Shown piece by piece: positions 27,636 to 63,117 of a DNA stretch of 64,000 nt. Both the position numbers and the translations under genes were made by a program. The notes under the pieces were generated by a model, which was not told where the DNA came from, did no database searches, and was given only the letters and a program-made list of their open reading frames with translations. The stretch comes from Candidatus Hydrogenedentota bacterium. GTDB taxonomy: Bacteria > Hydrogenedentota > Hydrogenedentia > Hydrogenedentales > Hydrogenedentaceae. Each line of letters starts with the position of its first letter. Position 1 is the stretch's first letter. The DNA lies in the NCBI GenBank assembly GCA_026415215.1, contig JAOAHN010000063.1:778-64777 (forward strand), in the 5' to 3' direction.

Positions 27636-29175
27636 TTTCATAAGAGAAATATATCACTCGAAAAATGTAATAGACCTATACTCAAATCCTTCTTGTGAAT
27701 ACACTAAAATTACATACGACTTTATTGTAGTCGGTAGCGGGGCAGGTGGAGCAGTAGTTGCTAAAGAATTGTCCGAAATTGGGGCAAAAGTAGCACTAAT
27801 AGAAGAAGGCCCATTACCCTTTCCATTTGAAAAATCTGCCTTTCGTTCTCTATTGAAAATATATAGAGAAAGTGGTTTTACAGGAGTCTTAGGAAAGCCT
27901 ATGATTCCCATACCACTTGGTAGGTGCGTTGGTGGAACTACTACTATAAACTCAGGCACTTGCTTCAGAACTCCGCAAGAAGTTTTTGACAAATGGAATA
28001 ATGAACTTAACCTTTCTACCCTTGTGAATAGCAATTGGGAATATCTCTTCACAAAAGTAGAAAAAGAAATCCATGTCGAAGAAGCAAAATGGGAAGTAAT
28101 GAACAAATCAAGTCATTTCATAAAAAGAATATTCACTACTCATGGATATGAATGTTTGCCATTGCGAAGGAATACAGAAAACTGTCAAGGCTGCGGAATG
28201 TGTTGTTATGTTTGCACTTCAGGTGCTAAAAAAAGTATGGAAGTTAGTTATATCCCTAAAGGGATAAAAAATGGGATGCTTCTTTTCTATAACGCAAAAG
28301 TTACAAGGATTTCATTAGACTCAAACCATAAAAGAATAACGGGAGTAGAAGTAGAAATTGTAAATCCCTCTAATAAGAAGCCTTTAGGAAAGATTAATAT
28401 AAAAGGAGGAGTGGTAATAATCGCATGCGGAGCGCTTCTTACCCCATCCCTCTTACAAAAAAGTGGCATAGCGAGAAATAACACTCACTTAGGAAAACAT
28501 TTAACTATACACCCCGCAAGTAAAATCTCCATAGAATTAGAAGAAGACATATATTCATGGGTGGGAATTCCTCAAGCTTGCTATAGCACTGCTTTGGAGA
28601 AGGAAGGAATAATATTTGAAGGGGTAGCAATGCCTCCTGATTTAGGACCATCTGCTATACCTTTTATAGGAGAAGAACTTGTAAACTACTTCACCAATTA
28701 TAGAAAAATGGCAACCTTTGGCTTCATGATAAAAGACTCTACTGAAGGTTATCTCAAAACACATATAAATAACCAGCCAATCTATTACTATCAGTTAACT
28801 GAAAGTGATGTATCAAGATTGAAAAAAGCGATAACTTTTCTTTCTGAATTAGCTATGAGTGAAAAAACAAAAAAGGTCTATGCTATGGTAAGCAAAAAAC
28901 CAAATGTTTTTTCCTCATTAGAAGATATTCAAAAGTTTATGAAAACGAAACACTCTCCGAATGATTTTGAATGTATGGCTTTTCATCCACTGGGCACATG
29001 TAGAGTAGGAACTTCACCTGAAAATGGTGTCTGTGACGAAACACTTAAGGTATTTGGAACGGAAAACCTGTATATATGCGATGGGAGTGCAATTCCTACT
29101 TCTCTCGGAGTAAACCCTCAACTAACCATAATGGCTTTTGCCACAAGATTAGCAACCATTATAAGCAAAACCTAA
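27628..29175 (+). CDS. GMC-family FAD-dependent oxidoreductase.
   Basis: N-terminal YDFIVVGSGAGGAVVA FAD fold. C-terminal GMC signature AFHPLGTCRVG and GSAIPTSLGVNPQLT. Confidence 0.85.
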   Translation: MNDFIREIYHSKNVIDLYSNPSCEYTKITYDFIVVGSGAGGAVVAKELSEIGAKVALIEEGPLPFPFEKSAFRSLLKIYRESGFTGVLGKPMIPIPLGRCVGGTTTINSGTCFRTPQEVFDKWNNELNLSTLVNSNWEYLFTKVEKEIHVEEAKWEVMNKSSHFIKRIFTTHGYECLPLRRNTENCQGCGMCCYVCTSGAKKSMEVSYIPKGIKNGMLLFYNAKVTRISLDSNHKRITGVEVEIVNPSNKKPLGKINIKGGVVIIACGALLTPSLLQKSGIARNNTHLGKHLTIHPASKISIELEEDIYSWVGIPQACYSTALEKEGIIFEGVAMPPDLGPSAIPFIGEELVNYFTNYRKMATFGFMIKDSTEGYLKTHINNQPIYYYQLTESDVSRLKKAITFLSELAMSEKTKKVYAMVSKKPNVFSSLEDIQKFMKTKHSPNDFECMAFHPLGTCRVGTSPENGVCDETLKVFGTENLYICDGSAIPTSLGVNPQLTIMAFATRLATIISKT

Positions 29176-31880
29176 TTTGTATGTAGGGAGAAAGAATCAA
29201 TCCAAAAAACTGCGGAATTATGAACCGTTGGAACAATCTTAATAGACTTAACCCGACCTAACCATCGAGGATGCGTTCTTAAATCAAATGTATAGATATA
29301 ATAATTCCCGTCAGCTCTAACAGGAATAGTTATTGAATTAGCTTCATCAAAATTCATCATCTTGAAAGCCCAGTAGAGTTTTACTTGAGAAACTCCCTCA
29401 CTAACATTATCTACCCTTAGCCTAATTGTAGCTCTCGGATACTTGAAAGCCAAAATTCCTTCAGTGTCATAGAAGAAAAAATATATAGAGGAATTTTCCG
29501 TGAGGGTCTTTCCCATTAAACTACCATCTACTACCTTCAAGTCATCTATCCCACTTAACACCTTCCATCCAGAAGTGCTATCCTGAAAATCCCAAAAAGT
29601 CCTTATCGGCTCAATCGGAAAATCATAAGGACCTAATCCAACATCTTCAGGAGCTATATTTACGGGCAGTGGTTCAGTATTCGACTTGGCAAAAACATCT
29701 CTTATAGCCTCATACATAGAAAATCCAAACTCGACATTAGGCTCTATATAACTGCCCTCTCCCCATTCATTCAAGGGACCCAATACCACAATGTTATTGT
29801 GATTTTCCTCTGTGTAATGTCTCGCCTTCAACAAAATCTCTCTAAATAACTCCGGAGTTCTACCAGAAATTACTAAAGCTCTTGTTCCATGCCAAGGACG
29901 GGAATCCCACCCTGTTTCTACTAAGGGATAATATATGATTCCCTCACAAAGGTTCCTTTTTTCTACCCACGAGGAATATGCAGTTTGTACTACATCTTCA
30001 TATCTCGCATAGTTAGAAACTGATGACTTCTGTAATGCTTTTTCAAACTCATGATAGTTTGTAAAACAAGCATAACCTTCTTCTACTAAAGTCTTTAACT
30101 CCGATGGAGTTCGGTTATTATTAACCGCCATGAAAACTATTCCATCGAATCCCTTCTCTTTGGCTAATTCCTGCGACCTCGTCAATAAAACCTTTACCGA
30201 GTCAGAGCCACCTAAATCATTTCTCAAATTCTCAGGGGACCAAATACAAACCAAGGGTTTATTACCTAACTTATAATAAGAAGGCAAATTAAAATAATTA
30301 TCGAGCCATTCGAGATTAACTTTTTCCCAATCTTCGGGAGAGTGAGTTTTAGGAGGGTTATGATTAGCCCACATTATAGCTACTTTTAGATAGTCCCTAT
30401 ATTTCGCTTTTTTATATGCTTCAAACCAATGTTTCAAAGATTGCCTTCCCGCAACCCAGTACCAATCAACCAAAAAACACTTTATCCCATTTTCCACTGC
30501 CCATTTAATTTGCCAATCTACACATTCTGGGTTACCCTCATTATAAAAACCTAAAGCTGGTTTTCTAACAGGGGATACGGTCCTAATACAATCCCACTTC
30601 TCCGCTGTGTCCCATCCTGGGAAATAAAAAGCACATAGATCCACCTTAGTCTCAATAGGTTTAGGCTCAGGAACATAATCTACCTCAACCTTCTGAATCT
30701 CTGGAAGAACAGTGATTTCGGCTGTATTTTCAGCTAACAAATCCTCTTTCGAGAAAGCTTGGACTTTTAATAAATGTTTACCATCTTTATCGCTTTTTAT
30801 AATCCATTTAACACTCGTATATTCCCCATACTCTACTATGTAAGGAGGCTCCGGCATTGGCCCTTCAACTATATCTATTCCTTCGGAAACTTCTAATCTT
30901 ACATCTCTAATTTCCTTCTCACCACCACCTATGTTACTAAACCTTGCCATAATTCCAAAAGGCCTGTTAACTCTATTGATTGCGTTCTCAGGTCCAAGGT
31001 AATTAACAGATAATTCAGGTTGCCCTAAAGGCTCTTCTCCTAAACTAATCTTAAATATCTTCATTTTTTGTGAATCAGGCAGTATAAATCCCATTGCTAC
31101 AAGTGTCCCAATCCAATTATTCTCCGAGGACATGTCCAAAGTGATGTAATGTCTTTTGCCATCACACTTATTAAAGGGAACTGAGATAGAGCGAAGACCT
31201 GAAATCTCTTTACTACTCCACAAAAATGTAATTGGAGGAACACAACCATCACTTGAATACTCAATACTTATAAAGGTTCTCTTACCCAACTCCAACTCTA
31301 AAGGTGGAGAAAAAAAATAATTAGAATTTTCTTCAATTTTCCAGCTCGAAATATCACCTTCGGGGAAAATCCAATCCCAAACATTATTAAAAGGAGATTC
31401 TTTACTCCAGGATTTAATAGAAATCTTTTCTATCTCAAAATTTACCCCTTCATACAAGTCTAACCTAATTTTCTTTATTTTACCTTCCTTATGCCAAAAG
31501 GGGAATATGCAAATCTCCTGCCATTCATTAGTATCCTTAACATTAAAGAAAGTAGATTTCTCCTGAGATAATCCGCCGTAAGGACCCTCATCGGTTCCAC
31601 TCCAAAATAACTGGCCAACCCCTCCTTTATCCACCCGGAGTTTCACTTTTAGATATTGATATGGTGTCGCTTCCAAATCCAATTTCTCACAAAGCAAATA
31701 AGGATCATAGCCCGAGGTAAATCCACTCAACTTTCCATCCGAAACTCTAATGTTTGAAATATACGAGTTAGGGACCCATACCGAAATCACATCCTCCTTA
31801 TCAAAAAACCACTCAGGTAATTGAGAAAACACAAGAAGTGAGAACATCAGAATACTCATACCGTAGTAATCTCCCTCCAA
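29172..31880 (-). CDS. Large secreted protein with a WbsX-like (GH99-like TIM-barrel) glycosyl hydrolase/transferase-like domain.
   Basis: N-terminal hydrophobic leader. The central AFYFPGWDTAEKWDCIRTV…GFYNEGNPECVDWQIKWAVENGIKCFLVDWYW resembles the WbsX FYLPQFH…GyYdl.npev…A..yGIdGF.fyhYW block. Confidence 0.45.
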   Translation of the reverse strand: MEGDYYGMSILMFSLLVFSQLPEWFFDKEDVISVWVPNSYISNIRVSDGKLSGFTSGYDPYLLCEKLDLEATPYQYLKVKLRVDKGGVGQLFWSGTDEGPYGGLSQEKSTFFNVKDTNEWQEICIFPFWHKEGKIKKIRLDLYEGVNFEIEKISIKSWSKESPFNNVWDWIFPEGDISSWKIEENSNYFFSPPLELELGKRTFISIEYSSDGCVPPITFLWSSKEISGLRSISVPFNKCDGKRHYITLDMSSENNWIGTLVAMGFILPDSQKMKIFKISLGEEPLGQPELSVNYLGPENAINRVNRPFGIMARFSNIGGGEKEIRDVRLEVSEGIDIVEGPMPEPPYIVEYGEYTSVKWIIKSDKDGKHLLKVQAFSKEDLLAENTAEITVLPEIQKVEVDYVPEPKPIETKVDLCAFYFPGWDTAEKWDCIRTVSPVRKPALGFYNEGNPECVDWQIKWAVENGIKCFLVDWYWVAGRQSLKHWFEAYKKAKYRDYLKVAIMWANHNPPKTHSPEDWEKVNLEWLDNYFNLPSYYKLGNKPLVCIWSPENLRNDLGGSDSVKVLLTRSQELAKEKGFDGIVFMAVNNNRTPSELKTLVEEGYACFTNYHEFEKALQKSSVSNYARYEDVVQTAYSSWVEKRNLCEGIIYYPLVETGWDSRPWHGTRALVISGRTPELFREILLKARHYTEENHNNIVVLGPLNEWGEGSYIEPNVEFGFSMYEAIRDVFAKSNTEPLPVNIAPEDVGLGPYDFPIEPIRTFWDFQDSTSGWKVLSGIDDLKVVDGSLMGKTLTENSSIYFFFYDTEGILAFKYPRATIRLRVDNVSEGVSQVKLYWAFKMMNFDEANSITIPVRADGNYYIYTFDLRTHPRWLGRVKSIKIVPTVHNSAVFWIDSFSLHTN

Positions 31881-32023
31881 ATAGTATGAATTTTGGAAAA
31901 TGGATTATAAACTTTGAGAAATTATAACAAATAATAATCCGCCGAGATTGGAATATTATCCCGGCGGACTGGATAAGCCTTTTTTCGAAATTCTACTTTA
32001 ATGCAACACTATGGAGCAACTAC

Positions 32024-34879
32024 TTACCGTGGTAGGCAGAATCCATCAATGTCAGCACTATTGTCTCCACAATCTCTCATATATCCACCGATATTGAAGA
32101 ATTGTATCAGTCTTAGTAACTCTGTAAGTTGGATTTTCCAATCCTGGGGACTGTAATCGCTCAAATGCGGTTTACACATTCTTAGGGACAGATCATCACC
32201 TGGCATATATCCATCCTCTGACTGACTCAAAGCACAGTGATAACCTCCAGCGTTGAAAAATTGAATAACTCTCAAGAGTTCACCAAGCTCAATCTTCCAA
32301 TTTCGATTAGTGTCCGCAGAGTGATATGGGGAATCCTCTCCTTCATCATCACCTTCAATACTCCCTTCTGAGACTCCTTCTATTTCACCTTCAAGTATTA
32401 TCTCTCCTTCTAAACCGCCCTCTGAGAGCCCTTCCGTATCACCTTCTACTTCACCTTCATTTACTCCCTCCTCAATCACACCTTCGGATGAACCTTCTTC
32501 GATCCCTTCAGTAGAACCTTCAATAACACCTTCCTCAACACCATCTACAGAACCTTCTATTTCGCCTTCAGATACTCCTTCAGTAACACCTTCAAAAACT
32601 CCTTCTGAGACACCTTCGGGTATTCCCTCGACAACACCCTCAGACACTCCTTCCATCACACCTTCGGAGATCCCTTCTCCTTCTTCATAGCCCTCTACAA
32701 TACCTTCACTCACACCTTCTTCAACAGATCCTTCCAAAGAACCTTCCGCTGTACCTTCTCCTTCTTGAACCATATACGGTTCAAAGTCATAACAATCCAA
32801 TACACCATTTTGATTCAAATCAACCGCATTTAATTGTTCTTGAGTAATGGAAGAATTTAATCCTTGCAGTTCATAAAGAATCAGAACCTCATCTCCATTA
32901 ATATCAATATCTGTGAACAGGTCATATATAACGCTTACTCTACTGAACTCACTTACACTTAATTGCCCGTCCCCATTAGTATCCACAAGATACCATCCTA
33001 ATAGCACTGTATCACTCCACCCAGTAATAGCCTTCAATTCATCCCTTGAAAGCAGTTTATTTCCATCTGTATCTCCAAACATCAAAAGGATATAATAATA
33101 ATGGACAATATCCGTTATATCACAAGGAGCCTCACCTCCATATACCCAACTATAATCCTCCGGACAAGGTGGGCATCCACCCCCGTCTGATGTCACATTG
33201 ATATCCAATGCAGAAGCCACAAATACATCATAATTCTGTGGAGATGTTACATGTGCTGTGTATTCACCCTTATTACAAACATTGTCAAAATCAGGATCAC
33301 CATCTGAGGCAAGATATTGGCCCGCAGTAGTGTCATATTCGTCGATAGTAAATGTTCCCCAGAAGTAAATGTAATCAATAATCTGAACTATTCTATTTAT
33401 GAAAGCTTTCTCGCCAGTGGTTAAGACACCAGCGATTACCGGAATGAATACCGAACTGGAAATAAACTGACCGATAAAAGGCAAAGAATTCCATTTAGTC
33501 TGGGCAGTTACTCTATTATTCATATAAGAATTCCTGACACAACAGAAAATTGGTAAATCAGGATGTGCAAGAATATAGTCTAACAATCTGGCTTGAGCAA
33601 CATCCGCTATTCCATTTTCGTCAATATCTGCGGTATCAGGATTAAGTCCTAACCAAGAAGCAAGGTTGTATAAGCTTCTTAGCGAGCTCTCAAACTGTGA
33701 ACTCACAGGGGAATTACTACATGTACTCCAACACCATTCAGCATAACAAGATTGGGGGAGCGGACCTATCAGATCCCAACAATCGAGATAGCCATTATCA
33801 TCTATATCTATTTCGTCAAATTTAGCCTGGGTTATCTTGCTACTCAACTGTCTTATCTCCGTCAAAGTTACTTTATTATCCCCGTCTGCATCTAAGTGTT
33901 GAGGTAATAAGCCACCTAAACGATTACTATCAACAAATTCTTGGTAGGACATATAGCCATCTCTATCTTTATCAATCAACCACCACCCCAACTCAAGTAA
34001 AATTCCATTAACGAACGCCTTTAGTTCATTCTTCGAAAGTTTTCCATCTGCATTGGTATCCCCGAAGAGCACAAGCAGAGCGAAGTAATTCTCATTAGAC
34101 CTCATATCACACTGGGGCCCCGGGGTTCCTTCTCCCTCACCAGTGCCCTCACCTTGCCCACAGTCAGGACAGCCCCCGTAATAGTCCCTTACATTAGGAT
34201 TTACTGCAGCGGATACAAAAGCATTAAAATCATCGGGTATCGTTAAAACCCAAGCTCTATACTCACCAATATTACAGACTCTATCAAGGTCAGCATCACC
34301 CTTAGCATTGAGATACACTATGTTTGAACCATCAAGCTCTAAGAGAGAAAGATCTGGCAAGTCAGGAATTATCCATTTTAACGCACTTAGTATCGTATTT
34401 ATGATTTCTTCATTTCCCATCGTTGCTAAAGCGGCAAAAAATGTCTTTAGATTTTCTAAATCAGGAGGCTCCCCAAGATAAGATGGCCAACCCGCATTAA
34501 TAGCCATAGCTAAAGCTTCGACCTTTACCCTATTCGCTACATAAGACCAATATATACAATTCCGAGTAGAAATCGCATTAAGAGGATTCATCTTCATTAT
34601 AGTGTCAAATAATCTTGCTTGAGCAACATCCTTCATTCCGTCAAAGTCAAGATCTAAGTTGTCCGGATTACCACCCAATAGAGGGATCTTCGTATACAGC
34701 TCACGCATCGAGTTTTCAAAACTCTCTGTATAAATTAGCCCAGGTATAATGTTATTACAAGGAGGAATATTACAATAATCTGGTTCTTGGGACTGCGAAT
34801 ATACATAGCCTAAATTAAACAAAATAAAAACTACTAATATATACATCACCCTGGGAGTATATGTAACACTTACTTTCAT
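32024..34879 (-). CDS. Large secreted Ca-binding repeat protein with multiple EF-hand/dockerin-like loops, two copies of a roughly 175-aa module, an acidic EG-repeat tract and a C-terminal twin ELLRVIQFFN module.
   Basis: Signal/TM leader. Canonical 12-residue loops DTNADGKLSKNE, DKDRDGYMSYQE, DADGDNKVTLTE, DTNGDGQLSVSE. An (EG[VIS]xEG)n tract of about 140 aa. C-terminal NWKIELGELLRVIQFFNAGGYHC … DWKIQLTELLRLIQFFNIGGY. Confidence 0.7.
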   Translation of the reverse strand: MKVSVTYTPRVMYILVVFILFNLGYVYSQSQEPDYCNIPPCNNIIPGLIYTESFENSMRELYTKIPLLGGNPDNLDLDFDGMKDVAQARLFDTIMKMNPLNAISTRNCIYWSYVANRVKVEALAMAINAGWPSYLGEPPDLENLKTFFAALATMGNEEIINTILSALKWIIPDLPDLSLLELDGSNIVYLNAKGDADLDRVCNIGEYRAWVLTIPDDFNAFVSAAVNPNVRDYYGGCPDCGQGEGTGEGEGTPGPQCDMRSNENYFALLVLFGDTNADGKLSKNELKAFVNGILLELGWWLIDKDRDGYMSYQEFVDSNRLGGLLPQHLDADGDNKVTLTEIRQLSSKITQAKFDEIDIDDNGYLDCWDLIGPLPQSCYAEWCWSTCSNSPVSSQFESSLRSLYNLASWLGLNPDTADIDENGIADVAQARLLDYILAHPDLPIFCCVRNSYMNNRVTAQTKWNSLPFIGQFISSSVFIPVIAGVLTTGEKAFINRIVQIIDYIYFWGTFTIDEYDTTAGQYLASDGDPDFDNVCNKGEYTAHVTSPQNYDVFVASALDINVTSDGGGCPPCPEDYSWVYGGEAPCDITDIVHYYYILLMFGDTDGNKLLSRDELKAITGWSDTVLLGWYLVDTNGDGQLSVSEFSRVSVIYDLFTDIDINGDEVLILYELQGLNSSITQEQLNAVDLNQNGVLDCYDFEPYMVQEGEGTAEGSLEGSVEEGVSEGIVEGYEEGEGISEGVMEGVSEGVVEGIPEGVSEGVFEGVTEGVSEGEIEGSVDGVEEGVIEGSTEGIEEGSSEGVIEEGVNEGEVEGDTEGLSEGGLEGEIILEGEIEGVSEGSIEGDDEGEDSPYHSADTNRNWKIELGELLRVIQFFNAGGYHCALSQSEDGYMPGDDLSLRMCKPHLSDYSPQDWKIQLTELLRLIQFFNIGGYMRDCGDNSADIDGFCLPR
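32330..32760 (-). repeat. Coding low-complexity tandem repeat (acidic EGVSEG-type tract) inside 32024..34879.
   Basis: Reiterated ccttc/accttc units in the DNA, translating to …EGVSEGIVEGYEEGEGISEGVMEGVSEGVVEGIPEGVSEGVFEGVTEGVSEGEIEG…. Confidence 0.7.
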
Positions 34880-34966
34880 ATTTTATTCTCCTATAATCCT
34901 ACTTAAGTTTTAATCTTAGGTTTAATAGATAAAAGCACTAAATAACACAGCCACTCACATATTCTA

Positions 34967-35440
34967 TCAACATCTGATTGGGAAAACTAACTTATTAGAA
35001 TCTTGTACATGAAAGGTTATATGGAAACCTTCAACATCGCCTTTCTTCTTGCTGATTACCGAGAAGTTAAAACAAGCCCCAAGTAAACTTATATCTCGAA
35101 CTCTGACCAATCTAATTCCACTCGATTGTCTGTCTGTAAGATGCTTATTGTATTCATCTTTAATAATTACCGCCTCATAAACCTTAATATTCTTCCGAGT
35201 AGAATCCCTATTAGCCCCTCTCGCCAACTTCGAATAGAGAGCACATAAGTCCCTTACATCTACCCATCCATCATCATTAACATCATAAATAAAGAAATTT
35301 GCAACTATCTCATATCGAAGGATATGAGAGACCAACCTTTCCCATTCTCCTACTGAGGGTTTAAAACCCACATGAGAATCACAAACTCCATATATTAGCA
35401 AACATACCACCACACTTATTTTCAATAATGACTTAAACAT
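34967..35440 (-). CDS. Small secreted protein with a single dockerin/EF-hand-like repeat.
   Basis: Signal peptide. YDVNDDGWVDVRDLCALYSKL fits a dockerin-type Ca loop plus helix. Confidence 0.4.
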   Translation of the reverse strand: MFKSLLKISVVVCLLIYGVCDSHVGFKPSVGEWERLVSHILRYEIVANFFIYDVNDDGWVDVRDLCALYSKLARGANRDSTRKNIKVYEAVIIKDEYNKHLTDRQSSGIRLVRVRDISLLGACFNFSVISKKKGDVEGFHITFHVQDSNKLVFPIRC

Positions 35441-35522
35441 CTTTATCCTAATTTTGTATAATTATTATAACACAAAATCTCGTAAAAGATATCGTGTACT
35501 CACTGTATTCAGAGTGTTGTTT

Positions 35523-36905
35523 ATGCAACAAAGATTACAACAAATTCCGCAACTAAGGCAAGAGCTAAGGCTATCTCAAACTCAAATCCAGTCATTGGAA
35601 ATTCTTCAGCTTCCCACACCAGAGTTAGAAACCCGATTAAGAGAAGAAACTGAAAAAAATCCTTTTTTAGAAATTGAAGAGAAGAGTAGCCTATCTTATG
35701 ATGACATAACAACCATTGAAGAAAAAGACCCCGAACAATATTACTCCAAAGATTTTAACAGAACACTGCCCTTAGATTTGAGTAAAAATCGTCACTCAGA
35801 ACTACCTGTTAATATTGTTTCAGTGACCCCTTCTCTGAAACAGCATTTAATAAAACAACTTAGATGTACCACTGAAGAACCCAGAATTCTCCAGATAGGC
35901 GAGGCGATAATAGCAAATATAGACAGAAAAGGCTATCTCTCAGAAACTGTGGAGGATTTAGCTCAGTCACTTAATGTAGGCAAAGAGGAGGTAGAAAAGG
36001 TCTTAGAAATTATACAGAGTTTCGAGCCTCCAGGCGTAGGTGCAAGAAATCTTAAAGAATGTCTTCTCATTCAGGCTAAAATTCTTTTTCCTGACAACTT
36101 TCTTTTAATAGAACTATTAGACAATCACTACGACGAGTTTATAAATTCACAAAAAAATAAAATAGCTAAAAACTTAAAGATCACACTGGAAGAAGTAGAA
36201 AACATCTACAAACTTATTAAAGAAAACTTTAATCCTCATCCAGGATACCAGTACCCAGAACCACCTGAGTATATATTCCCAGATCTTATAGTTAAAGAAT
36301 TAGAGGATGGCAAATATACCGTAGAGTTAGTAGATGAATACCTCCCCAAGGTTAAGCTGGTTGAAACTTTATCTCAAGAAGATATAAAAAAACTACCCTC
36401 CGAAGAAAAAGAAAAAGTAAAAGAGTGGAAAGAAACCGCTAAATCACTTATAAGAAGCATAGAATTAAGGAAAGATACCCTATTGAAAGTGGGGGAAGAA
36501 ATTGTAAGGAGCCAAGAAGGTTTTATGAAAAAGGGCCCCTCACACTTAAAGCCTATGACTTACAAAGACATAGCCCAAAAGTTAGGGGTTCACGAATCAA
36601 CAATATCCAGATGCATTGCAGGAAAGTGGATTGCTACACCTCAAGGGATATATGAGCTGAAATTTTTCTTCACGAGAGGACTCGAATCAGCTAAAGAGGG
36701 AGAAACAGTATCCGCTCAGGCGATAAAAAATTTAATATTAGAAATTGTTAACCAGGAAAATAAAGCAAAACCTCTTAGCGACGAAAAAATTGCCGAAATG
36801 ATAGAAAAACAACTCGAAGTAAAAATAGCTCGAAGAACTGTTGCAAAATATAGAGAAGAACTTAAAATTCCCAACTCATCTGATAGAAAAAGAATCCAAA
36901 AATAA
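35523..36905 (+). CDS. rpoN: RNA polymerase sigma-54 factor.
   Basis: Gln/Leu-rich region I (MQQRLQQIPQLRQELRLSQTQIQSLEILQLPTPELE…NPFLE) and a C-terminal RpoN box ARRTVAKYRE. The start is at the ATG at 35523 rather than the tracked 35454. Confidence 0.9.
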   Translation: MQQRLQQIPQLRQELRLSQTQIQSLEILQLPTPELETRLREETEKNPFLEIEEKSSLSYDDITTIEEKDPEQYYSKDFNRTLPLDLSKNRHSELPVNIVSVTPSLKQHLIKQLRCTTEEPRILQIGEAIIANIDRKGYLSETVEDLAQSLNVGKEEVEKVLEIIQSFEPPGVGARNLKECLLIQAKILFPDNFLLIELLDNHYDEFINSQKNKIAKNLKITLEEVENIYKLIKENFNPHPGYQYPEPPEYIFPDLIVKELEDGKYTVELVDEYLPKVKLVETLSQEDIKKLPSEEKEKVKEWKETAKSLIRSIELRKDTLLKVGEEIVRSQEGFMKKGPSHLKPMTYKDIAQKLGVHESTISRCIAGKWIATPQGIYELKFFFTRGLESAKEGETVSAQAIKNLILEIVNQENKAKPLSDEKIAEMIEKQLEVKIARRTVAKYREELKIPNSSDRKRIQK

Positions 36906-36911
36906 AATACC

Positions 36912-40163
<3,252 letters not shown>

Positions 40164-58473: not shown

Positions 58474-61107
58474 CTAATACTCATACGCACCTATGTCGTA
58501 ATCAGATCCGTCCCCCCGTGGAGCTGAAATTCCGTCTCTACCTCTCATGTTATTCTCAATATCGAAAATCACGGAGCCCCACTCTTCACTACTGGTATCA
58601 AATCCCGCATCCACACACGGCGAACTACTGGAAAGCCTTAAGTTGCCACCTTGAGGAAAAACAAACAGAGGGTCTACTGAAATATTGCCTACCCCCTGCT
58701 TCTCTACCTGTAGATTACAATAATAGAATTCAGGTTCTCCTCCCAACGAATATACTCCAGCACCTGAATTTTCCCAAATTATAGTATTCCCAAATCTTAA
58801 ACCTCCGTAATAATTGAACACCGCCCCACCCTGAATATTTGAAAGCAGATCAGTCATATTCCCATAAAAGGTGCAGTTCGTAACGATTATATTTTCACAA
58901 AAATCGAGGTGAAGCCCCCCTGTTCGTTCAGTCGAGTAACTGAAATCATATGACTGGTTACGGAAAACAACCGAATTTATTAACTTGCCGGAGCTTCGTG
59001 TCAGGAATCCCATACCACCGCTTGCCCGAGAATAGCCTGGATGGTCATTAGTCGAAACCGAATTATTTCTAAACTCAGAACTTTCAATTCTGAAGCTTGA
59101 ATACCACAAATAAATAGCACCACCTAATGCTCTTGCTACCGCTCCATAGTAATTTCCATTTATCCGCCCATCACCTATCCCTTCTGCGGAGCATGAGTTT
59201 AGATAAAAATAACTATTTTCCAAAGATAATGATGAATTATAAGAGTAAATTGCGCCTCCGCCCGCTGTCGCATATACATTTCCTATCGAATTTTTCCATT
59301 CACACCGAGCGTTAGCCACATTTCTCTCAAATCTACACCTGACAAAATTCGCAACGCTATCAGATACATAAACCGCACCACCATAATTGTAAACAGAGGC
59401 TGTCCCATTCAGTTCAACCCTGTTTTCAATAAAATGGCAGTCATACGCTGATAGCTTTCCGCTCAGAATAGCTATCGCCCCTCCAGCTCCTTCTGCTTTA
59501 TTCTGGAAGAATTTGCAATTTCTAACAGTCATCCTCTTTCCAGGGATGTATAATCCCCCTCCGTCCGAAGCGTCTAAGTATATACCATTAAATCGGGCAA
59601 TACCCCCCTTAATAACGAAACCATCTATCTCACAATAATTATCCCCTAATAAAACATGCCACGCTGGTTCACCTGCTCGAGATTTGCTCCCATCGATGAC
59701 TGTTACATTCGTATTAAAGTTCCTTTGGGATAAACTAATCTCATTTCCACTAAAACCACCATATAATTTAACAAGTTCTCTTAGGACAAGTGCCCCGTAG
59801 GGATTATTTCTCACTTCGTCGTAAATACCACCTGCAACCCAAACTTCTCCTCCACCTAACTCATAAGCCTTATTTATCCCCTCCTGAATTGTAGTATAAG
59901 CAGAATCCCAAGTTAATCCATCTGGTTCAACTTCTTTATTTACATTACTTTTCTTAACATGTATTCTCACGCCCTCATGTATTTCAATGTAATTCTCTCT
60001 AACTATGGTATCTGTGCCAGCAGTAGTAGTCACACTTAATCTTACGGTGTAAACTCCAGGCTGAGTATATATATGAACTGGATCTCTCTGAACACTAAAA
60101 GAACCATCCCCAAAATTCCAAAGCCACTGGGGATCTGTTCCGTTTCCTAACCTACTTTCATCGGTAAACTCCACTTCCGTACCTACTAGAGTCCTGGTTG
60201 GCGATGCGGAAAAATTTGCTTTAGGGGGATAAGGCAAAGCACTATATATCCTAATCCAACCTGCCAATATGCTCAAAGGATACAAAATCCCCTGAGGGTA
60301 TGTGGTTGATAATATATTTTCACTATACAAAGAGTATATATCTCCGAAGTCTACTTCCTCAGATATGTGAAATCTAATAGCCATAAGAAGCCCTGAGGAC
60401 ATTCCAGTTGTAGAGGTACCAGAAATAACAACTCTCAACCTCCCAGGTACTATCTGGGAAACTGTTAAACTCCTACCTGTATTAAATATGACAAGCCCAG
60501 GAATAGACTCTACATAATTTAGTTTTCTATGGTTGTAGAGTAAATCAAACTGAATAGAATCGAGGAAAACATCTTTTGTATCTAATGTAAACGGGACAGA
60601 CACATCAGAATTAGGAACTGCATCTTTTCTATCAATAACCACTCTTGCATATTGATATACTTCCCCCTCTCCCTCAGGTGAGCCTTCCAATTCTCCTTCT
60701 TCATTATTAGGGGGGCATAGAATAGGTCTGAAGCCATCTTCAGTCCCTGAGTATGGCTCGTAACCACAAGAATTATAAAATTGTATTAGTCTCAAAATCT
60801 CATTAAGAGTAATACGCCACTTATTATTTTCCTCAAAATCACTGTCATGAGGTTCACAACTCTGATCACCCGGCCCGGGGTTATACCCATCTTCCCCATT
60901 GGGGTCACAATGATAACTCTTTACATTATAGAATTGAATTACTCTAAGAAGTTCAGATAAATTTATTTTCCCATCTCTATCTTTATCAGCCGAATGATAT
61001 TCGGTTTGGTCTGTATATCCATAAATACTAATTACTATAAAAAAAATAAAAACAAACAATATACACTTTTTTCCTCTACTACTCATTTTGTTTTCCTTTA
61101 TCAGCAT
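58474..61107 (-). CDS. Secreted protein with an N-terminal dockerin/EF-hand twin module, a PKD domain and a right-handed parallel beta-helix (pectate-lyase fold).
   Basis: Signal/TM. DKDRDGKINLSELLRVIQFYN … NKWRITLNEILRLIQFYNSCGY. PKD WNFGDGSF…HIYTQPGVYTVRLSV. PbH1-like repeats (NCKFFQNKAEGAGGAIAI, GGAVYVSDSVANFVRCRFERN, GGAIYSYNSSLSLENSYF). Confidence 0.7.
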   Translation of the reverse strand: MLIKENKMSSRGKKCILFVFIFFIVISIYGYTDQTEYHSADKDRDGKINLSELLRVIQFYNVKSYHCDPNGEDGYNPGPGDQSCEPHDSDFEENNKWRITLNEILRLIQFYNSCGYEPYSGTEDGFRPILCPPNNEEGELEGSPEGEGEVYQYARVVIDRKDAVPNSDVSVPFTLDTKDVFLDSIQFDLLYNHRKLNYVESIPGLVIFNTGRSLTVSQIVPGRLRVVISGTSTTGMSSGLLMAIRFHISEEVDFGDIYSLYSENILSTTYPQGILYPLSILAGWIRIYSALPYPPKANFSASPTRTLVGTEVEFTDESRLGNGTDPQWLWNFGDGSFSVQRDPVHIYTQPGVYTVRLSVTTTAGTDTIVRENYIEIHEGVRIHVKKSNVNKEVEPDGLTWDSAYTTIQEGINKAYELGGGEVWVAGGIYDEVRNNPYGALVLRELVKLYGGFSGNEISLSQRNFNTNVTVIDGSKSRAGEPAWHVLLGDNYCEIDGFVIKGGIARFNGIYLDASDGGGLYIPGKRMTVRNCKFFQNKAEGAGGAIAILSGKLSAYDCHFIENRVELNGTASVYNYGGAVYVSDSVANFVRCRFERNVANARCEWKNSIGNVYATAGGGAIYSYNSSLSLENSYFYLNSCSAEGIGDGRINGNYYGAVARALGGAIYLWYSSFRIESSEFRNNSVSTNDHPGYSRASGGMGFLTRSSGKLINSVVFRNQSYDFSYSTERTGGLHLDFCENIIVTNCTFYGNMTDLLSNIQGGAVFNYYGGLRFGNTIIWENSGAGVYSLGGEPEFYYCNLQVEKQGVGNISVDPLFVFPQGGNLRLSSSSPCVDAGFDTSSEEWGSVIFDIENNMRGRDGISAPRGDGSDYDIGAYEY

Positions 61108-61110
61108 CTC

Positions 61111-63117
61111 TCAACGGGAATTACACCCACACTTCACTCCCGTAATGTTTTTTAGGTACTCTTCTAATTCTTCACGGGAGATTTTTCCATCTCTATCTTT
61201 ATCTATCTCGAGCAATAAGTCTATAGGAATTTGAGGATACCTTTCAACTACCTCTTCGTAGCTTAAATACCCATCACCATCTATATCGCAATAAGAAAAT
61301 GTAGACCACAGCAAAAGAGCAAAATTTCTCTTCTCTTTCTCCGTTAGAGCTACTGATTTTTTATAAGACACATCCAAAGCCAAACGACTGGCAAAGGGAA
61401 TGTATACCTTAAGCGACTGGGGTTTTATATAGCCATCTACATCTGTAAATTCTATCTCTACCCACCCCATCTCAAGGATTACCACTTCCTTAGAATTTCT
61501 CCATAATTCAAATCCTTTAGGTCTCCACTTGGCCCCTTTATTCACTGCATCCGGTGGAAATATGCTAACCATTAACTCACCAACTTTTATAAAGGTCTCT
61601 ACCACAACCTTGTTCTCACCCGAATCAATTTCTACATCTATATAATCATTTTTAAAATCCAAATACCGAGAATAAACCCATCCCTGAGGTTGATAAAAGA
61701 AAACTCTATAAACCCCAGCTGACAATCCCGTTACACTCTCTCCACTGGAACGCCAAGCCTCATCCCCCTCAATCTTCCATTGGGCCCCACTAATCACGGC
61801 CTCCTCTGGTTCAATAATAACGGTAAGAGAAGCAAAAACTTCATCTTCTCCCTCTCCTTCTATTATTCCTTCACCTTCTCCCTCGAGAATACCCTCTAAC
61901 ACACCTTCTCCCTCATACGGAGACTCACCCTCACCACACCATACACAACCACCACCATCACTGAACTCTTCAACACTCAACACCCTCCTCTTATAGCCTT
62001 CCAAACCCTCACTCGAATCCATCGCATATCTATACTCACCTAAATTACACACCCCATCCATATCAGCATCACCATACATACTCAACCAACACGAACTACT
62101 CACATTAAATAAAGCCATATTCGGCAACGGCACCTCCAATGGCAATTCATCTATCATACCCACCAACATCTCCACTGTAGACCTTTCTCCAACCGTCATT
62201 ATCCCTGCCACTACTCTCTCAAACCTCGCACGATCCACTATCAAAAATATCACCGGTTGGCTCGCCGCTATCTCATCTGCATATAACTTCGCGCTATCCA
62301 AATTAACTACATAAGTAGCTACAACACAACAATATATTCCCATATCCCACCTACTCAATACACCATCAAGTATCCACGCCTGAGCTACATCCAGCACCCT
62401 ATTGCCATCCAAATCCGCTTTATCCGGGTCCTCTCCAAATAACTCGTAAAACCACCTCAAATCAGATTCAAAACTACTACTCACCTCCCCACTATTACAA
62501 CCAACCTCAAGACAATTATCTATATTACAAGGATCAAACCAAAATCCTCCCTCTCCTTCTCCTTCTGCAACACCCTCTCCCTCCTGTGTCCCCTCAATAC
62601 CTCCCTCATTCACACCTTCCCCCGATCCTTCAGAAGAATCGCAGACACAAACTAAGTTTGCAACAACTGATTCAGTAGTTATATTAGGTCCATCAGTACG
62701 ATACATACCGTATGAAGTCACTGCCAAAGGAGAAGTATATCCTTCTTCTACATTTATCTTGAAAGAAAATTTAAAAGGAAAATTAGGTATGAATATCCAG
62801 GCAAACTCAAATCTTCCTCTTGTTCCCCCAGACGGATAAATAGGTGGGAGTGCACCGGAAACTAACGATACAAAGCTACACTGCTGAGGAACTTCCGTCA
62901 CCAATCCAAGGGCAGTAACAGTGCTTGAACCAGTATATATAAATTCTACCTCCACTACTAAATCTTTGCCAGGTGTGTACTTATTACCGTTAGAAATATA
63001 CCCTTCCCCACCTATAGTCTGTGAAATTTTTAAATCTGTTTCAGCGAAACTCCAAATCGAGAAAAACAACACCACGAATAGGAAAACCAACACAAATTTT
63101 TCATATATACTATACAC
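61111..63117 (-). CDS. Secreted paralogous Ca-binding repeat protein with one copy of the 175-aa module, EG tracts, a repeated beta-rich domain and a C-terminal EF-hand pair. It lies 3 nt upstream of 58474..61107 on the same strand.
   Basis: Leader peptide. SFESDLRWFYELFGEDPDKADLDGNRVLDVAQAWILD … DADMDGVCNLGEYRY … GGGCVWCGEGE. C-terminal DIDGDGYLSYEE and DKDRDGKISREE canonical EF-hand loops. Confidence 0.65.
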   Translation of the reverse strand: MYSIYEKFVLVFLFVVLFFSIWSFAETDLKISQTIGGEGYISNGNKYTPGKDLVVEVEFIYTGSSTVTALGLVTEVPQQCSFVSLVSGALPPIYPSGGTRGRFEFAWIFIPNFPFKFSFKINVEEGYTSPLAVTSYGMYRTDGPNITTESVVANLVCVCDSSEGSGEGVNEGGIEGTQEGEGVAEGEGEGGFWFDPCNIDNCLEVGCNSGEVSSSFESDLRWFYELFGEDPDKADLDGNRVLDVAQAWILDGVLSRWDMGIYCCVVATYVVNLDSAKLYADEIAASQPVIFLIVDRARFERVVAGIMTVGERSTVEMLVGMIDELPLEVPLPNMALFNVSSSCWLSMYGDADMDGVCNLGEYRYAMDSSEGLEGYKRRVLSVEEFSDGGGCVWCGEGESPYEGEGVLEGILEGEGEGIIEGEGEDEVFASLTVIIEPEEAVISGAQWKIEGDEAWRSSGESVTGLSAGVYRVFFYQPQGWVYSRYLDFKNDYIDVEIDSGENKVVVETFIKVGELMVSIFPPDAVNKGAKWRPKGFELWRNSKEVVILEMGWVEIEFTDVDGYIKPQSLKVYIPFASRLALDVSYKKSVALTEKEKRNFALLLWSTFSYCDIDGDGYLSYEEVVERYPQIPIDLLLEIDKDRDGKISREELEEYLKNITGVKCGCNSR

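Follow-up and report, generated by a model that had tools for sequence, protein, structure and literature searches.

In the EF-hand of the calmodulin type (clan CL0220), the 12-residue loop, with consensus positions 1, 3, 5, 9 and 12, is abutted by an entering helix and runs into a second one, and the helix-loop-helix units form a beta-bridged pair. Type I dockerin (PF00404) is an extracellular domain of ~70 amino acids consisting of two 22-residue repeats with a short linker between them. It has two calcium-type loops, each followed by a helix and lacking a proper entering helix, and it is found in modular secreted proteins joined by linkers. The EC domain of SPARC/BM-40 is an extracellular helical domain with a canonical EF-hand pair, in which the EF-type Ca2+ sites are stabilised by disulfides. 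Excalibur (PF05901) and bacterial TSP3 (PF18884) are small extracellular Ca-binding motifs of the DxDxDG type with a cysteine nearby, and in TSP3 wires the loop repeats follow each other without a gap and form little regular secondary structure. Here, we analyzed a module of ~200 residues that resembles each of these domains in part. It is present in three copies in a 64,000-nucleotide stretch of the genome of a Candidatus Hydrogenedentota bacterium (contig JAOAHN010000063.1), referred to below as the window. Two copies are encoded by gene A (32024..34879, minus strand; 951 amino acids) and one by gene B (61111..63117, minus strand; 668 amino acids), both of which are long open reading frames (ORFs) with a signal-peptide-like N-terminus. 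The best-supported conclusion from the sequence comparisons is that the module is a genuine, previously unannotated domain that occurs specifically in multidomain proteins of a secreted, surface type from Hydrogenedentota. It represents a new family whose chemistry, EF-type loops and disulfides, is familiar.

Copy 1 (34160..34774, minus strand) corresponds to amino acids 36-240 of protein A and extends from CNIPPC to GGCPDC over 205 residues with six cysteines. Copy 2 (33164..33748, minus strand; amino acids 378-572 of protein A) runs from CYAEWCWSTC to GGGCPPC and has 195 residues with eight cysteines. Copy 3 (61936..62529, minus strand; amino acids 197-394 of protein B), which has Gly/Glu-rich linkers on both sides, runs from CNIDNCLEVGC to GGGCVWC and has 198 residues with nine cysteines. 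The boundaries were taken from the family alignment (at least 50 strong instances) and from the linker positions. In composition-adjusted BLASTP, the copies aligned end to end, with 35% identity between copies 1 and 2 (E 4e-31), 35% between copies 2 and 3 (E 1e-35) and 28% between copies 1 and 3 (E 3e-18). Therefore, the homology of the three copies is far beyond chance. When the six-frame translation of the window was searched with hidden Markov models (HMMs) built from the copies and from the family, no further copy of the module was found; copy 2 scored 224 against the family HMM (i-E 2.6e-68).

The module starts with a conserved Cys cluster, which reads CPxxCxxxC in the family and CxxxxCxxxC in the window, and ends with GGGCxxC. 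In most family instances the start is preceded by a (Gly-Glu)n linker, and in copy 1 of protein A by the signal peptide; the GGGCxxC end is usually followed by another (Gly-Glu)n linker. The opening motif is SFENSMRELY in copy 1, QFESSLRSLY in copy 2 and SFESDLRWFY in copy 3. It is followed by a first D-x-D motif (loop 1; DLDFDGMKDVAQARLFD, DIDENGIADVAQARLLD and DLDGNRVLDVAQAWILD, respectively) and a second one (loop 2; DADLDRVCNIGEY, DPDFDNVCNKGEY and DADMDGVCNLGEY), before the closing GGCPDC, GGGCPPC or GGGCVWC. A preliminary description of the window, made from the letters alone, had placed the three copies at 34159..34726, 33169..33697 and 61932..62475 and had proposed that they should align over their full length. 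The alignments bear this out and all three copies are in frame on the minus strand, but each of the ranges exceeds a multiple of three by one base. The motifs that it listed are also present, with two deviations: N-R replaces (D/N)-G in loop 1 of copy 3, and YGGC replaces GGGC in copy 1. The size of ~175 amino acids had to be revised to ~200, as the N-terminal Cys cluster had been missed and the start lies 17-20 residues further upstream.

A total of 1.84 billion representatives were searched exhaustively with HMMER, in a single pass without iteration. The search retrieved 86 relatives at E ≤ 1e-3, including 50 at E ≤ 1e-10 and 20 at E ≤ 1e-30; most of them cover the full profile and some contain several copies. 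A word-indexed search gave only one match with a 3-sequence profile, a Candidatus Hydrogenedens hypothetical protein (79% identity), and five with a 65-sequence profile, so that the index misses the family. A scan of one genome per species revealed 35 module loci in 18 assemblies; a 4-sequence alignment was used for it, and the result is biased toward close relatives. These loci are labelled as Hydrogenedentota/Hydrogenedens, as 'uncultured bacterium' or as 'uncultured Nitrospirales (binchicken)'. In the closest genome, module copy 1 is 90% identical, and in Candidatus Hydrogenedens terephthalaticus, which has an orthologue of gene A, it is 82% identical. In the case of two 'Nitrospirales' loci (L004 and L007), copy 1 is 74-80% and the whole protein A 67-75% identical, and L007 also has the Hydrogenedens synteny around gene A. 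These data argue that the label is probably wrong and that both metagenome-assembled genomes (MAGs) come from Hydrogenedens relatives. The distant members that could be traced also belong to Hydrogenedentota, one of them on chromosome OY782877 and another in a Hydrogenedentiales bin. Apart from the MAGs judged mislabelled, every taxonomically labelled relative is from Hydrogenedentota, in line with the lineage-specific domain suggested in the preliminary description.

The module sequence is also conserved among orthologues. Copy 1 shares 76-89% identity with the orthologous copies of other Hydrogenedens genomes, and the nonsynonymous divergence (dN) of the modules is 0.07-0.27; the synonymous sites are saturated and no dN/dS ratio is computable. 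In the closest orthologue of protein A, the modules are 87-89% identical, whereas the acidic linker is only 58% identical. Together with the low dN, this indicates that the module sequence is under more constraint than the linker.

No model of Pfam-A (2025) or NCBIfam (2026) matched the module of the window proteins; the matches fell only on the adjoining classical EF-hands. Among these was one weak SPARC_Ca_bdg match (E 0.056), located in a classical EF-hand block of protein A. When 65 family members were scanned singly, EF-hand_1 was detected in five (best E 0.0098), below threshold and on the loop only, Excalibur in one (E 0.026), TSP3_bac in one (E 0.097) and Dockerin_1 in none. The NCBIfam model Amuc_1099_fam (pilus-like), which matched six of the 65, was rejected, as it covered only a 16-residue loop with 14 bits versus a cutoff of 50. 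A comparison of the family profile with all PDB sequences gave only calmodulins, at E ~0.006, with the matches confined to ~20 residues. In these alignments, loop 2 (DaDgDgvcNlgEY) pairs with calmodulin site IV (DIDGDGQVNYEEF), and the match of loop 1 is weaker. In the literature searched, no paper on Hydrogenedentota refers to EF-hands, and none that we found on related topics describes these proteins. Thus, the module had rightly been called unrecognised in the preliminary description: apart from sub-threshold, loop-confined matches, neither Pfam nor NCBIfam linked it to a characterised domain.

The structure of the module was predicted with AlphaFold2. With an alignment of four sequences, the model was unconvincing, with a predicted local distance difference test (pLDDT) score of 66. 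With the 65-sequence alignment, amino acids 393-574 of protein A gave a pLDDT of 95 and a predicted template modelling score of 0.91, and all five models had a pLDDT of 93.5-95. The model is all-alpha, with eight helices and two loops; in copy 2, the helices comprise residues 5-15, 35-47, 54-73, 84-97, 100-113, 129-132, 145-152 and 156-166. DSSP analysis of the model revealed no beta-bridges or strand residues. Each loop runs into a helix, loop 1 is preceded by at least 15 coil residues, and loop 2 is preceded only by a 4-residue helix. A Foldseek comparison with 350,542 chains detected no relative among solved structures (best E 3.6, TM ≤ 0.22).

The two calcium-type loops lie ~110 residues apart and have the consensus DxDxNGxxDxx[Q/H] (loop 1) and DxDxDGxCNxxE (loop 2). 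Loop 1 of copy 2 (DIDENGIADVAQ; 33593..33628, minus strand) has D1, D3, N5, G6 and D9, with Q at position 12; its equivalents are found at 34619..34654 in copy 1 and at 62380..62415 in copy 3, both on the minus strand. Loop 2 of copy 2 (DPDFDNVCNKGE; 33263..33298, minus strand) is a 12-residue EF-hand loop of the form D1 D3 D5 x6 V7 C8 N9 E12, and its equivalents lie on the same strand at 34262..34297 (copy 1) and 62035..62070 (copy 3). Across the 65 members, D139, D141 and E148 are invariant, D137 is present in 64 and N145 in 63; D137, D139, D141, N145 and E148 represent loop 2 positions 1, 3, 5, 9 and 12, and the cysteine is at position 8. The sequence of loop 2 thus follows that of a canonical 12-residue EF-hand loop, with ligand positions that are essentially invariant in the family, and the loop most likely binds one Ca2+. 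In loop 1, D27 (position 1) is conserved in 64 of the 65 members and D35 (position 9) in 61, and position 12 is Q in 27, H in 22 and E in 9, so that 49 members have Q or H. In classical EF-hands, binding is lost when E12 is changed to Q. With Q or H instead of an acidic residue at position 12, loop 1 may be a non-canonical or weaker site, or else one of its ligands may be supplied from outside the loop, possibly by N64 or T96. These two residues (in the window at ~33443..33445 and ~33347..33349, minus strand) are invariant in all 65 members and lie inside helices, outside both loops; they could provide a further metal ligand, make a polar contact in the interior or belong to a binding site. 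An internal duplication of the module was also considered and rejected. In an hhalign comparison of the two module halves, the loops were in register over 17 columns (P 0.003, 10% probability), and nothing beyond the 17-residue loops was supported. Given the canonical and invariant loop 2, the earlier proposal of a Ca-stabilised module appears plausible.

All eight cysteines are present in 63 of 105 distinct domain instances, and the losses come in pairs. The third N-terminal cysteine (N3) co-varies with the first cysteine of the CC motif (phi 0.78), which was never found without N3; copy 1, which lacks both, is an example of such paired loss. The correlation between the second CC cysteine and the last cysteine is stronger (phi 0.93, 105 instances). 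The loop 2 cysteine was never present without the GGGC cysteine, and both are the last to be retained. This paired loss and co-occurrence suggests up to four disulfides, which would join N1 to N2, N3 to the first CC cysteine (CCa), the second CC cysteine (CCb) to the last cysteine (Ct2), and the loop 2 cysteine (C8) to the GGGC cysteine (Ct1). The disulfide stabilisation put forward in the preliminary description is likewise plausible, as the presence of the cysteines co-varies in pairs and the proteins carry signal peptides.

The family proteins contain from one to six modules. In four of the loci there are 5-6 modules per protein, with strong and divergent copies alternating. Among 64 proteins, the most frequent partner domains were Ig (9/64), EF-hand (8/64) and Lectin_C (6/64); InlB B-repeat, Bact_surface_Ig-like, PKD, TIG, CHRD, Peptidase_C1, PhoPQ_related, LRR and Beta_helix were also found. 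The partners are of secreted or surface type. Downstream of the module there is usually an acidic linker, and then a C-terminal domain that is conserved and dockerin-like. All 27 module-bearing ORFs of the loci in which this domain was detected end exactly in it, and nearly all the others abut a contig end or are broken; more distant members end instead in a hydrophobic segment with a basic tail. The domain is a double repeat of ~95 amino acids (HSAD...LSELLRVIQFFN..GYHC...EDGY / SDYNPQDW...LSELLRLIQFFN..GY..C..EDGFCPG), with the consensus HSADxxxDxxIxLSELLRVIQFFNxGGYHC..EDGY..PG for the first half and SDYNPQDWxIxLSELLRLIQFFN..GY..C..EDGFCPG for the second. No Pfam or NCBIfam model covers it, and only weak EF-hand (16/23) and Dockerin_1 (3/23) matches were obtained. 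It is present in at least 533 protein clusters; the named ones are nearly all from Hydrogenedentota, and one is from Kiritimatiellae. The double repeat is likely a phylum-specific anchoring, sorting or dockerin-like domain.

In our estimation, it is fairly probable that the module is a new, Hydrogenedentota-specific extracellular accessory domain, stabilised by Ca2+ and disulfides, which serves as a spacer or interaction unit. Loop 2 would hold one Ca2+, perhaps with a second, weaker site at loop 1, and through the disulfides, the Cys cluster at the N-terminus and the tail at the C-terminus would both be fastened to the helical core and to loop 2. Rigidified in this way, the module would act outside the cell as a structural spacer or as an interaction unit. 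Single modules, or up to six of them, would sit between the enzymatic or adhesive heads and the (Gly-Glu)n linker with the C-terminal domain, and this dockerin-like domain would presumably anchor the proteins. Several observations weigh against such an explanation. Loop 1 has Q or H at position 12, and some of the window copies carry R or N at loop position 6. A structural role alone would not account for the invariant N64 and T96. The structure comparison covered solved structures, and an unannotated structural relative may exist beyond them; a single pass of the family search may also have missed part of the taxonomic range.

A different explanation is that the module is not a new domain but a divergent member of the classical EF-hand superfamily, in which an EF-hand pair has been split by a helical insertion of ~95 residues. 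Both loops are in register with the 12-residue EF consensus: loop 2 fits positions 1, 3, 5, 9 and 12, loop 1 fits positions 1, 3, 5 and 9 only, and each runs into a helix in the model. Classical EF-hand blocks adjoin the module in protein A, and the weak EF-hand_1 matches in five of the 65 members point in the same direction. However, these matches stay below the Pfam thresholds and are limited to ~20 residues, no significant EF-hand profile match was obtained among the 65 members, and Foldseek revealed no structural similarity. Unlike an EF-hand, the module has no helix-loop-helix pair: according to DSSP of the model with pLDDT 95, no entering helix abuts either loop, and no beta-bridge connects the two, which lie ~110 residues apart. 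The cysteine at position 8 of loop 2, the Q or H at position 12 of loop 1 and the hhalign match of only 17 columns between the halves also differ from expectation, and we consider this origin improbable. The SPARC EC domain resembles the module as an extracellular helical domain with disulfide-stabilised EF-type sites; it has, however, a canonical EF-hand pair, and the module shows no sequence or structural match to it. In Excalibur, the motif is DxDxDGxxCE, with CE at positions 9-10, whereas the module has DxDxDGxCNxxE, with Cys at position 8 and Glu at position 12. Moreover, neither Excalibur nor bacterial TSP3 is a 200-residue helical domain. A Ca2+-wrapped, thrombospondin type-3-like repeat, which had been suggested in the preliminary description, is superficially similar through DxDxDGxxxN with an embedded Cys and through the single TSP3_bac match. 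The confident all-helical model, with eight helices and only two loops in ~200 residues instead of contiguous repeats, makes it hardly credible. The AlphaFold modelling envisaged in that description thus gave no support to a TSP3-like fold.

The other alternatives concern the function of the module. It could be a ligand-binding accessory module, resembling a carbohydrate-binding module (CBM), for carbohydrate or another polymer, which targets hydrolases, lectins and adhesins and whose binding site is shaped by the Ca2+ loops. Fusions to Peptidase_C1, PhoPQ_related, Beta_helix and Lectin_C would fit this role, as would the invariant N64 and T96-x-G-E outside the loops. Conserved synteny, with gene A between a GH2 beta-galactosidase gene and a WbsX-like gene of glycosidase type, is also in its favour, and so is the description of Hydrogenedentes MAGs as polysaccharide degraders (PMC9723792). 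On the other hand, a catalytic domain is not recognisable in many of the family proteins, the module showed neither an aromatic platform nor a binding signature, and the synteny has no functional link behind it. The known CBMs are overwhelmingly beta-sandwiches and all-alpha CBMs are unusual, whereas the module is all-alpha in the model. This role therefore seems unlikely to us. Dockerins raise a further question. As described above, the module shares with type I dockerin the presumed extracellular setting, a pair of loops that each run into a helix but lack a proper entering one, and the occurrence in linker-joined secreted proteins. It differs in its length of ~200 residues, its large helical insertion and its up to eight cysteines; it has no tandem 22-residue repeats, and no PF00404 match was found in any of the 65 members. 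The module might instead be an analogue of cohesin, the receptor for the dockerin-like C-terminal domain, with the proteins of 5-6 tandem modules as scaffoldins in a Ca2+-dependent assembly. A loop-helix unit occurs twice in the C-terminal domain, which weakly matches Dockerin_1 and EF-hand models, and both domains are common to one phylum and co-occur in the same proteins. However, this support is purely circumstantial. Both domains are found together in most module proteins, as would fit a single passenger-plus-anchor design, the C-terminal domain also closes the multi-module proteins, and cohesins are beta-sandwiches; consequently, we regard a cohesin-like role as very unlikely. It is only slightly less doubtful that the module and the double repeat form a phylum-specific, cellulosome-like system of surface assembly or anchoring, with multi-module scaffolds and C-terminal plugs.

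Hydrogenedentota are known here only from MAGs, and the literature searched describes no surface proteins of this phylum. The module, the (Gly-Glu)n linkers and the C-terminal double repeat constitute a recurrent blueprint of its secreted proteins that is unannotated in databases. Defining the module would improve the annotation of at least 86 representative clusters, and defining the C-terminal domain that of at least 533 clusters. It would also add a confidently modelled helical domain without a PDB neighbour. Through its possible Ca2+ dependence, disulfides and potential partner, the module offers a handle on the display of hydrolases and adhesins. The finding would gain in interest if the module and the C-terminal domain proved to be linked in a surface-assembly system. 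The finding is not a paradigm shift, since EF-type loops and disulfides are familiar chemistry, and lineage-specific accessory domains are common in uncultured phyla.

Protein A is composed of the signal peptide, a module, four EF loops, a second module, four further EF loops, the linker and the C-terminal double-repeat domain. EF-hand block 1 (33773..34060; amino acids 274-369) and block 2 (32786..33073; amino acids 603-698), both on the minus strand and with four loops each, gave Pfam EF-hand_1/6/7 matches with E values from 1e-13 to 1e-18. The unit duplicated in protein A is therefore larger than the module: it consists of the module and a four-loop EF-hand block and is ~340 amino acids long. 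This two-unit layout is kept in orthologues down to ~43% identity. The last loop of each block contains a cysteine (DIDDNGYLDCWD and DLNQNGVLDCYD). The acidic linker, rich in E, G and V, is ~150 amino acids long (32330..32773, minus strand) and is followed by the C-terminal domain (32027..32326, minus strand; amino acids 852-951). Shorter acidic linkers of the (GE)n and EGxxEG type surround each module, for example at amino acids ~170-196 and 395-430 of protein B, and in relatives pure (GE)n runs of 20-40 residues were observed. Many database entries for module proteins are 'partial', perhaps as a result of such repeats breaking assemblies. The gene order around gene A (29172..40124 in the window) is conserved in at least four Hydrogenedens genomes and includes the GH2 beta-galactosidase gene, rpoN (sigma-54), a 157-amino-acid ORF, gene A and the WbsX-like gene of 902 amino acids. 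The 157-amino-acid ORF (34967..35440) gave weak Dockerin_1 and EF-hand matches.

In protein B, the signal peptide is followed by an N-terminal beta-rich region, a linker, the module, another linker, two repeats of ~75 amino acids and an EF-hand pair. An orthologue (P0008) was found in the exhaustive family search. Protein B itself does not have the C-terminal double-repeat domain; the double repeat is present in the gene downstream of B (58474..61107), where it is located at the N-terminus (60724..60999, minus strand; amino acids 37-128). The two ~75-residue repeats, at amino acids ~431-600 (...AVISGAQWKIEGDEAWRSSGE... / ...AVNKGAKWRPKGFELWRNSKE...), are unannotated. The beta-rich region at amino acids ~26-165 has no Pfam match, and relatives with the layout of protein B (e.g., P0020) match BACON_2 weakly in their N-terminal part.

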